From Escherichia coli (GTDB lineage Bacteria > Pseudomonadota > Gammaproteobacteria > Enterobacterales > Enterobacteriaceae), in assembly GCF_003018255.1 (NCBI RefSeq), contig NZ_CP027440.1: a DNA stretch of 64,000 nucleotides; one strand, written 5' to 3'. The position numbers and the translations under genes are program-made. Positions 4,737 through 59,107 of the stretch are shown here, piece after piece (the first letter of the stretch is position 1; every line of letters begins with the position of its first letter). Under the pieces are notes generated by a model. It searched no databases. It was not told where the DNA came from and saw nothing but the letters and a program-made list of their open reading frames with translations.

Positions 4737-7099
<2,363 letters not shown>

Positions 7100-11871: not shown

Positions 11872-11880
11872 TTCACGGCC

Positions 11881-11912
11881 AAAACGCCGGAGGTTTTTCT
11901 CTCCGGCGTAAT
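11881..11912. terminator. bidirectional terminator between convergent ydgA and uidC
   Basis: CGCCGGAG-GTTTTTCT-CTCCGGCG perfect 8-bp stem, A/T runs on both sides. Confidence 0.6.
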
Positions 11913-26685: not shown

Positions 26686-29382
<2,697 letters not shown>

Positions 29383-57685: not shown

Positions 57686-57693
57686 AGAGGAAA

Positions 57694-57783
57694 TCAGTGC
57701 AGCGCGGCAGTCAAACCCACGGCCACGATCAAACCGAGGACGATAATCGTTGTTACCAGTGAAAATTTAAGGTCGGTGCTCAT
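57694..57783 (-). CDS. ynhF: 29-aa single-TM small protein
   Basis: Minus-strand ORF MSTDLKFSLVTTIIVLGLIVAVGLTAALH with AAGGAG SD 8 nt upstream; below the ORF-track size cutoff. Confidence 0.7.
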   Translation of the reverse strand: MSTDLKFSLVTTIIVLGLIVAVGLTAALH

Positions 57784-58021
57784 CAAGTTTTCTCCTTTTT
57801 TATTACCACACAAAAAGTGATATTACGCATTTTTACACACTGTGATGAAAAAATCTCCCGTCATTTATAATGATAAGTGTTTTTACCACTTCCCCTTTTC
57901 GTCAAGATCGGCCAAAATTCCACGCTTACACTATTTGCGTACTGGCCATTGACCCCTTCCTGACGCTCCGTGTCGTTTTTCCGGCGTACCGCAACACTTT
58001 TGTTGTGCGTAAGGTGTGTAA

Positions 58022-58037
58022 AGGCAAACGTTTAGCT
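58022..58037. promoter_or_regulatory. PurR operator O1 (PUR box) in the purR leader
   Basis: AGGCAAACGTTTAGCT contains the PUR box core GCAAACGTTT, about 45 bp upstream of purR ATG. Confidence 0.6.
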
Positions 58038-58081
58038 TGCGATTTTGCAGGAGCTGAAGTTAGGGTCTGGAGTGAAATGGA

Positions 58082-59107
58082 ATGGCAACAATAAAAGATG
58101 TAGCGAAACGAGCAAACGTTTCCACTACAACTGTGTCACACGTGATCAACAAAACACGTTTCGTCGCTGAAGAAACGCGCAACGCCGTGTGGGCAGCGAT
58201 TAAAGAATTACACTACTCCCCTAGCGCGGTGGCGCGTAGCCTGAAGGTTAACCACACCAAGTCTATCGGTTTGCTGGCGACCAGCAGCGAAGCGGCCTAT
58301 TTTGCCGAGATCATTGAAGCGGTTGAAAAAAATTGCTTCCAGAAAGGTTACACCCTGATTCTGGGCAATGCGTGGAACAATCTTGAGAAACAGCGGGCTT
58401 ATCTGTCGATGATGGCGCAAAAACGCGTCGATGGTCTGCTGGTGATGTGTTCTGAGTACCCAGAGCCGTTGCTGGCGATGCTGGAAGAGTATCGCCATAT
58501 CCCAATGGTGGTGATGGACTGGGGTGAAGCAAAAGCTGACTTCACCGATGCGGTCATTGATAACGCATTCGAAGGCGGCTACATGGCCGGGCGTTATCTG
58601 ATTGAACGCGGTCATCGCGAAATCGGCGTTATCCCTGGCCCGCTGGAACGTAACACCGGCGCAGGCCGCCTTGCCGGTTTTATGAAGGCGATGGAAGAAG
58701 CGATGATCAAAGTGCCGGAAAGCTGGATTGTACAGGGTGACTTTGAACCTGAATCCGGTTATCGCGCCATGCAGCAAATACTGTCGCAACCGCATCGCCC
58801 TACTGCCGTCTTCTGTGGTGGCGATATCATGGCAATGGGCGCACTTTGTGCTGCTGATGAAATGGGTCTGCGCGTGCCGCAGGATGTTTCGCTGATCGGT
58901 TATGATAACGTGCGCAACGCCCGCTATTTTACGCCAGCGCTGACCACGATCCATCAGCCAAAAGATTCGCTGGGCGAAACGGCGTTCAACATGCTGTTGG
59001 ATCGTATCGTCAATAAACGCGAAGAACCGCAGTCCATTGAAGTGCATCCGCGCTTGATTGAACGCCGCTCCGTGGCTGACGGCCCGTTCCGCGACTATCG
59101 TCGTTAA
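58082..59107 (+). CDS. purR: purine repressor PurR (LacI family)
   Basis: 341 aa; recognised PurR ([33 protein letters not shown]...). Confidence 0.96.
58109..58124. promoter_or_regulatory. PurR operator O2 (PUR box) inside purR codons 10-14
   Basis: CGAGCAAACGTTTCCA contains GCAAACGTTTCC. Confidence 0.6.

Follow-up and report, generated by a model that had tools for sequence, protein, structure and literature searches.

Organization of the purR locus

The window, i.e., the whole 64,000-nucleotide (64-kb) stretch of Escherichia coli DNA that was analyzed, aligns to positions 1679763-1743762 of strain MG1655 with ~98% identity. Its nearest relative in the collection of complete E. coli genomes used for comparison, of which this strain is not a member, shares 99.7% identity across 16 kb. 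The open reading frame (ORF) at 58082-59107 matches the annotated purR gene of MG1655 and of ~5,400 E. coli genomes. Its product was recognized by the PurR equivalog model NF007979 (NCBIfam) with a score of 711 bits (cut-off 501), while the next-best model, RbsR, remained below its own cut-off. The protein is near-identical to the purine repressor chains in PDB, e.g., 1pnr and 1qpz, and there are zero amino-acid differences between it and PurR of K-12. The main features of the region are listed in Table 1.

The stop codons of purR (+ strand) and punR (- strand) overlap at 59104-59107 (TTAA), the same as in K-12; the neighboring genes punR and punC specify a transporter of purine nucleosides together with its activator. 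Some observations were also made in more distant parts of the window. Positions 28912-29335 showed BLAST self-similarity at an offset of ~96 bp when compared with the MG1655 equivalent, which indicates a tandem repeat region, located by its position in rsxC, and the arrangement of the repeat copies may differ from that of K-12. The alignment with MG1655 is broken at about 11880-11910, with a shift of ~90 bp, and positions 1-273 did not align to the MG1655 stretch starting at 1679763, which may be a mere coordinate offset.

Table 1. Features identified at the purR locus, in coordinates of the window
Feature	Position	Strand	Basis and remarks
cydH (ynhF) mRNA, Rfam STnc550, 5' UTR of ~298 nt	57691-58081	-	antisense to the purR upstream region; contains O1
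cydH (ynhF) CDS, 29 aa, cytochrome bd-I accessory subunit	57694-57783	-	RefSeq annotation of the MG1655 equivalent
hairpin CGCAACA-CTTT-TGTTG(TG)CG	57990-58009		just 5' of O1; 23 Enterobacteriaceae upstream regions aligned
O1, 16-bp PUR box AGGCAAACGTTTAGCT	58022-58037	+	45-60 nt 5' of the purR ATG; core 58024-58033
C-to-G substitution, O1 box position 14	58035	+	sole difference from MG1655 in 401 bp
purR CDS, 341 aa, purine repressor, LacI/GalR family	58082-59107	+	ORF, RefSeq annotation of matching genomes, NCBIfam
candidate cydH promoter	58088-58115	-	-10 TATTGT (58093 to 58088), 16-bp spacer, -35 TTGCTC (58115 to 58110)
putative marbox equivalent GCTCGTTTCGCTACA	58098-58112	-	similarity to the Salmonella site; overlaps the first O2 bases
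O2, 16-bp PUR box GAGCAAACGTTTCCAC	58110-58125	+	codon 10 base 2 to codon 15 base 2 of purR; core 58112-58121

Two PUR boxes flank the purR start codon

A pattern search of both strands of the window revealed two copies of GCAAACGTTT, at 58024-58033 and 58112-58121, both on the + strand; a third copy is absent from either strand of the entire 64 kb. The original prediction had placed one core in the 5' leader of purR and the other within the gene, and both positions proved to be exact. It had also assigned the second core to codons 10-14. The location within the coding sequence is correct and the codon numbers are not, as the 10-mer begins at codon 11 and ends with the first base of codon 14 (A11 N12 V13 S14).

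In shuffled sequence, 0.35 copies of GCAAACGTTT were expected per window, and at least two copies were obtained in 6 of 100 shuffles. The two copies found here are, moreover, only 88 bp apart and lie on either side of one start codon, which is far rarer than the presence of two copies anywhere: from the shuffle rate, the chance that a second copy lies no more than ~100 bp from the first can be calculated as ~1e-3. Each core is embedded in a longer box, designated O1 in the leader and O2 in the coding sequence. Both are PUR boxes, i.e., imperfect 16-bp palindromes with a central CpG (ACGCAAACGTTTGCGT). Each has more than three mismatches relative to a perfect palindrome, which is usual for natural sites.

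The two boxes were then compared with the published K-12 sites. In the ChIP-chip study of Cho et al. 2011 (PMC3159470, Table 1), a PurR-bound region at purR was seen only with adenine, and the motif reported for it, AGGTAAACGTTTGCCT, located 45-60 nt 5' of the ATG, is the reverse complement of K-12 O1. A study of GalR (PMC5110547, Table 4) lists GAGCAAACGTTTCCAC at 1737872-1737887 in purR, together with AGGCAAACGTTTACC at 1737791, and notes an overlap of these sequences with the PurR operators described by Rolfes & Zalkin 1990. After coordinate conversion, the motifs of both studies coincide with O1 and O2. The proposal that the cores correspond to the known two-operator autoregulation of purR was thereby supported, as was the expected agreement with published site coordinates. 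The view that O1 and O2 are the long-known operator pair of purR, already described by Rolfes & Zalkin 1990, is supported; PurR binding and its purine dependence are taken here from the published work.

The purR operators have been placed downstream of the promoter, as stated in the title of Rolfes & Zalkin 1990 (J Bacteriol 172:5758) and in PMC3159470, and, according to the latter, PurR binds within the open reading frame of both purB and purR and blocks elongation. A scan for the sigma-70 consensus between 57750 and 59250 found no promoter, and no confident placement of the purR promoter was possible by eye. The location of O1 downstream of the promoter is therefore given according to the literature, while O2 is downstream of the purR transcription start because it lies inside the coding sequence.

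Site strength estimated with a weight matrix

A PurR weight matrix was constructed from 27 ChIP-supported sites of Cho et al. 2011 (PMC3159470, Table 1), with purR left out. The training sites scored between 11.9 and 24.9 bits. O1 of the analyzed strain obtained 17.9 bits, the top score in the window and inside the range of the supported sites, and the K-12 form of O1, AGGCAAACGTTTACCT, obtained 21.2 bits, also within the range of validated sites. O2 was borderline, with 11.2-11.9 bits (6th to 10th in the window), at the bottom edge of the supported-site range. By sequence alone, O2 is no better than several probably chance matches in the window, and with such a low rank it could not have been called in this way; its standing derives from its position, its conservation and the published experiments. 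The scores are consistent with O1 being a strong site and O2 a weak one.

A third PUR-like sequence, CAAAACACGTTTCGTC at 58150-58165, was rejected with a score of -5 bits. The second-best match in the window, GCGCAATCGCTGGCGT at 4965-4980 (~16 bits), is apparently located inside tus, as judged from the MG1655 alignment. It lacks the AAACGTTT core and is probably a chance match. The other matrix matches across the window lie within unrelated genes, lack the GCAAACGTTT core and are also probably due to chance.

O2 is conserved at the DNA level

The conservation of O2 was analyzed in orthologues retrieved from one genome per species with a degenerate N-terminus pattern, in which codons 11 onward were unconstrained. 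At least 120 loci were obtained, and those listed include 85 Enterobacterales PurR orthologues and 32 unrelated LacI-family genes; the sampled taxa leave out genera such as Klebsiella. Among the loci listed, GCAAACGTTTCC is present at codons 11-14 (GCA AAC GTT TCC) in all 44 Enterobacteriaceae orthologues, and the codons flanking this block vary across the same 44 species. The other Enterobacterales families were sampled via Serratia, Yersinia, Pectobacterium, Dickeya, Pantoea, Erwinia, Hafnia, Edwardsiella, Providencia, Xenorhabdus and others. Their orthologues encode Ala-Gly-Val-Ser by freely varying codons and have no O2 box.

The main test of synonymous variation was performed with 38 full-length orthologues, for which PurR protein identity of at least 86% was the sole criterion of inclusion. 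A set picked via the O2 12-mer, which is circular with respect to O2, gave the same result. Codon usage was invariant at 8 of the 273 usable purR codons, and four of these eight are the consecutive codons 11-14, which represent the gene-wide minimum of synonymous diversity in a 4-codon window. A run of at least four invariant codons appeared in 1e-4 of shuffles. Synonymous variation does occur at base 3 of codon 10 and of codon 15, which directly border the conserved core. The invariance of O2 is meaningful despite shared descent, because the neighboring synonymous sites are near saturation.

These results provide direct evidence of selection maintaining O2 as DNA, beyond that acting on the protein sequence. 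The claim that this coding region carries an embedded regulatory site is supported. The O2 16-mer has been published as overlapping a PurR operator (PMC5110547). The antisense cydH promoter or GalR, both considered below, could account for part of the constraint.

Codon 12 (58115-58117) is AAC in the Enterobacteriaceae, encoding Asn12 in the turn of the helix-turn-helix, and GGN, encoding Gly, elsewhere in the Enterobacterales sampled. Gly12 is also present in most of the unrelated LacI-family genes from the ortholog scan. The box needs AAC at codon 12, and O2 is therefore found only where PurR has Asn12. Asn12 is tolerated without the operator: in two loci from outside the Enterobacteriaceae, Acerihabitans (L010) and a MAG (L120), it occurs in the context GCT AAC GTA TCR, and neither O2 nor O1 is present. 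A literature search found no earlier discussion of synonymous constraint, intragenic selection or coupling to Asn12 at purR.

O1 across species and a private allele

The left half of O1, AGGCAAACG, is invariant. In nearly all of the 85 Enterobacterales orthologues among the loci listed, the box lies 57-63 nt 5' of the ATG. In an alignment of upstream regions covering 23 genera, the O1 core was the sole fully conserved block of the leader. The core Enterobacteriaceae have O1 in the form AGGCAAACGTTTACCT, which scores 20.8 bits. In Cedecea, Mangrovibacter and Dryocola (basal Enterobacteriaceae), as well as in other families, O1 ends with ...TTAACA or ...ATTAACA and scores 11-13 bits. The basal Enterobacteriaceae genera pair this weak O1 with O2, and the stronger O1 therefore seems to have arisen later. 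The likely order of events would be an old weak O1, followed by the gain of O2 and then by the strengthening of O1. The spacing between O1 and O2 differs by 1-2 bp among genera (offsets of -58 to -60), which speaks against a strict helical phase and is consistent with each site being bound independently.

O1 of the analyzed strain differs from this pattern at box position 14, which is C in K-12 and every other genome examined, or A in distant genera. The 60-mer containing the O1 of the window had an exact match in none of the 5,424 E. coli genomes, compared with 4,385 for the K-12 60-mer. A 34-nt query centered on the G at 58035 returned no match, and G at position 14 was found in none of the cross-species orthologues sampled. 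In a metagenome scan, the G allele had 0 matches and the K-12 allele only 5, which leaves this comparison without power.

The substitution at 58035 lowers the matrix score of O1 by 3.3-4.4 bits. Position 14 of the PUR box (mirror position 3) is a specificity-determining position (PMC2577325), and its mirror is G in 24 of the 27 sites of Cho et al., the three exceptions being poorly enriched (PMC3159470 data). The private G would weaken O1 and loosen autoregulation somewhat, although a sequencing error is possible.

An antisense cydH transcript overlaps the purR upstream region

The cydH gene (translation: MSTDLKFSLVTTIIVLGLIVAVGLTAALH) is divergent from purR in most of the Enterobacterales sampled. 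The same arrangement is found in those without O2, and the cydH/purR organization is therefore older than O2. The region between the two genes, together with cydH, produced a full-length match to the Rfam family RF02081, STnc550 (388 bits, gathering score 48, E = 3e-101, model positions 1-388 of 388). STnc550 holds the cydH CDS and therefore represents the mRNA of cydH, including a ~298-nt leader. The 5' end of the model adjoins the purR ATG here, in Salmonella and in Cedecea, and lies no more than 2 nt from it in Pantoea.

The hairpin located just 5' of O1 is conserved across the Enterobacteriaceae aligned and belongs to the consensus structure of STnc550 in Rfam. Compensatory changes were observed in it between genera, e.g., CACAATC/GATTGTG in Kluyvera and TCCC/GGGA in Phytobacter. 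RNAalifold run on the alignment of the upstream hairpin gave no consensus structure, the alignment being probably poor.

The position of the STnc550 5' end at 58081 implies an antisense promoter in purR codons 1-15, and a plausible candidate in this region would have its -35 hexamer inside the O2 box. This raises the question of whether O2 is mainly, or additionally, an operator of the antisense cydH/STnc550 promoter, which would make a cytochrome bd-I subunit responsive to purine status. We consider this rather unlikely. It is favored by the full-length match to STnc550, a model whose 5' end adjoins the purR ATG here as well as in Salmonella and Cedecea, and by the plausible -10 and -35 hexamers separated by a 16-bp spacer. 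O1 would lie at about +45 to +60 of the STnc550 RNA. At the equivalent place in Salmonella, a MarA/RamA site, GCCCGTTTCGCTACA, was detected by ChIP-seq at purR<>ynhF (PMC10268841), and the putative marbox of the window was recognized by similarity to it. In addition, sites over the -35/-10 region are the usual geometry for PurR (14 of 32 promoters; PMC3159470), and PurR control of cydH via O2 would be geometrically reasonable.

However, the predicted promoter is weak and its -10 differs between genera. The frozen positions fit the PUR box (58112-58125) better than the 6-bp -35 hexamer or the marbox, in which synonymous sites vary. In the literature searched, PurR-dependent expression of cydH is not reported, STnc550 is not mentioned, and a tie between STnc550 and PurR control is not described. 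A role of O2 at the antisense promoter would also be compatible with the known role in autoregulation, and would not have to replace it.

Role of O1 and O2 in purR autoregulation

Taken together with the published data, O1 and O2 are very probably the operators through which PurR represses its own gene. In the 1990 work, O1 was reportedly bound about six-fold tighter than O2, the binding to O1 and O2 is said to have been non-cooperative, and the two- to three-fold autoregulation reportedly needed both sites. Each 16-bp PUR box would be occupied by a PurR dimer carrying hypoxanthine or guanine, with O1 acting as the strong site and O2 as the weak site. Because the literature places both sites 3' of the promoter, repression would affect a polymerase already engaged in transcription, by a roadblock like that demonstrated for purB, the promoter itself not being hidden. 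The resulting autoregulation would be only a few-fold.

It is very unlikely that the sites are primarily operators of GalR or shared LacI-family operators. A GalR ChIP-chip peak was indeed found at ynhF/purR, with both boxes as inferred sites, and was validated by ChIP-qPCR (PMC5110547). The minus strand of O2, GTGGAAACGTTTGCTC, compared by eye with GTGnAAnCGnTTnCAC, has a perfect GalR-type left half, GTGGAAAC. However, the same study (PMC5110547) found that GalR regulates these genes little or not at all, while O1 is an excellent PurR box with adenine-dependent PurR occupancy (PMC3159470). Binding of GalR would add to PurR control and not replace it.

Hardly credible is the explanation that the intragenic motif is a mere by-product of coding for Ala-Asn-Val-Ser in the helix-turn-helix, without a regulatory role: the N-terminal helix-turn-helix is strongly conserved as protein, the matrix score of O2 is weak, like that of chance matches, and Acerihabitans and the MAG encode the same four residues by other codons without a box, but the synonymous-site test largely refutes this explanation, with four third positions invariant in 44 species and the same residues encoded elsewhere by two to four codons, and O2 is regarded as a PurR operator in the literature.

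With autoregulation by PurR as the preferred role of both sites, a broader scenario for their history can be put forward tentatively, as one possibility. O2 would be kept as DNA, and making it would have required a change in the DNA-binding domain of PurR itself, after which all synonymous bases of the box would have stayed frozen. The gain of O2 may have put CydH under purine control, and the stronger O1 would have come later, to be partly undone by the private SNP in the analyzed strain.

The two-operator finding alone re-identifies a textbook case of 1990. What is added to that work is (i) the synonymous freezing tied to Asn12, (ii) the private O1 variant, and (iii) the overlap of O2 with the putative antisense cydH promoter. 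The purR gene is a clean example of a regulatory site in a coding region, with four codons that show no synonymous change in dozens of species and one helix-turn-helix residue, Asn12, bound up with the operator sequence.

Comparison with known systems

The operators purRo1 and purRo2 of K-12 (Rolfes & Zalkin 1990) share with the analyzed locus the gene, the positions relative to the ATG, the O2 sequence and the PurR protein. They differ in purRo1, which is AGGCAAACGTTTACCT in K-12 and AGGCAAACGTTTAGCT here (15 of 16 bases are the same), the latter allele being present in 0 of about 5,400 complete E. coli genomes.

The purB operator (He & Zalkin 1992, cited in PMC6524683 and PMC3159470) is similar to purR in that a PUR box in the coding region acts on elongating polymerase. 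However, the single purB site lies far inside the gene, whereas purR has one site in the leader and another in codons 10-15, and these regulate the gene of their own repressor. Intragenic positions account for less than 1% of the sites of LacI-family regulators (PMC4052901). The RF02081 STnc550 RNA, the enterobacterial cydH/ynhF transcript, is encoded here in full length on the opposite strand, where it covers O1 and ends at the purR ATG.

The standard pur operators (purF, purT, purHD and others) consist of the same 16-bp palindrome, bound by the same corepressor-dependent repressor, as the purR sites. They overlap the -35/-10 region, repress by occluding the promoter and reach 20-25 bits, whereas a position 3' of the promoter is reported for the purR sites, O2 being a far weaker site.
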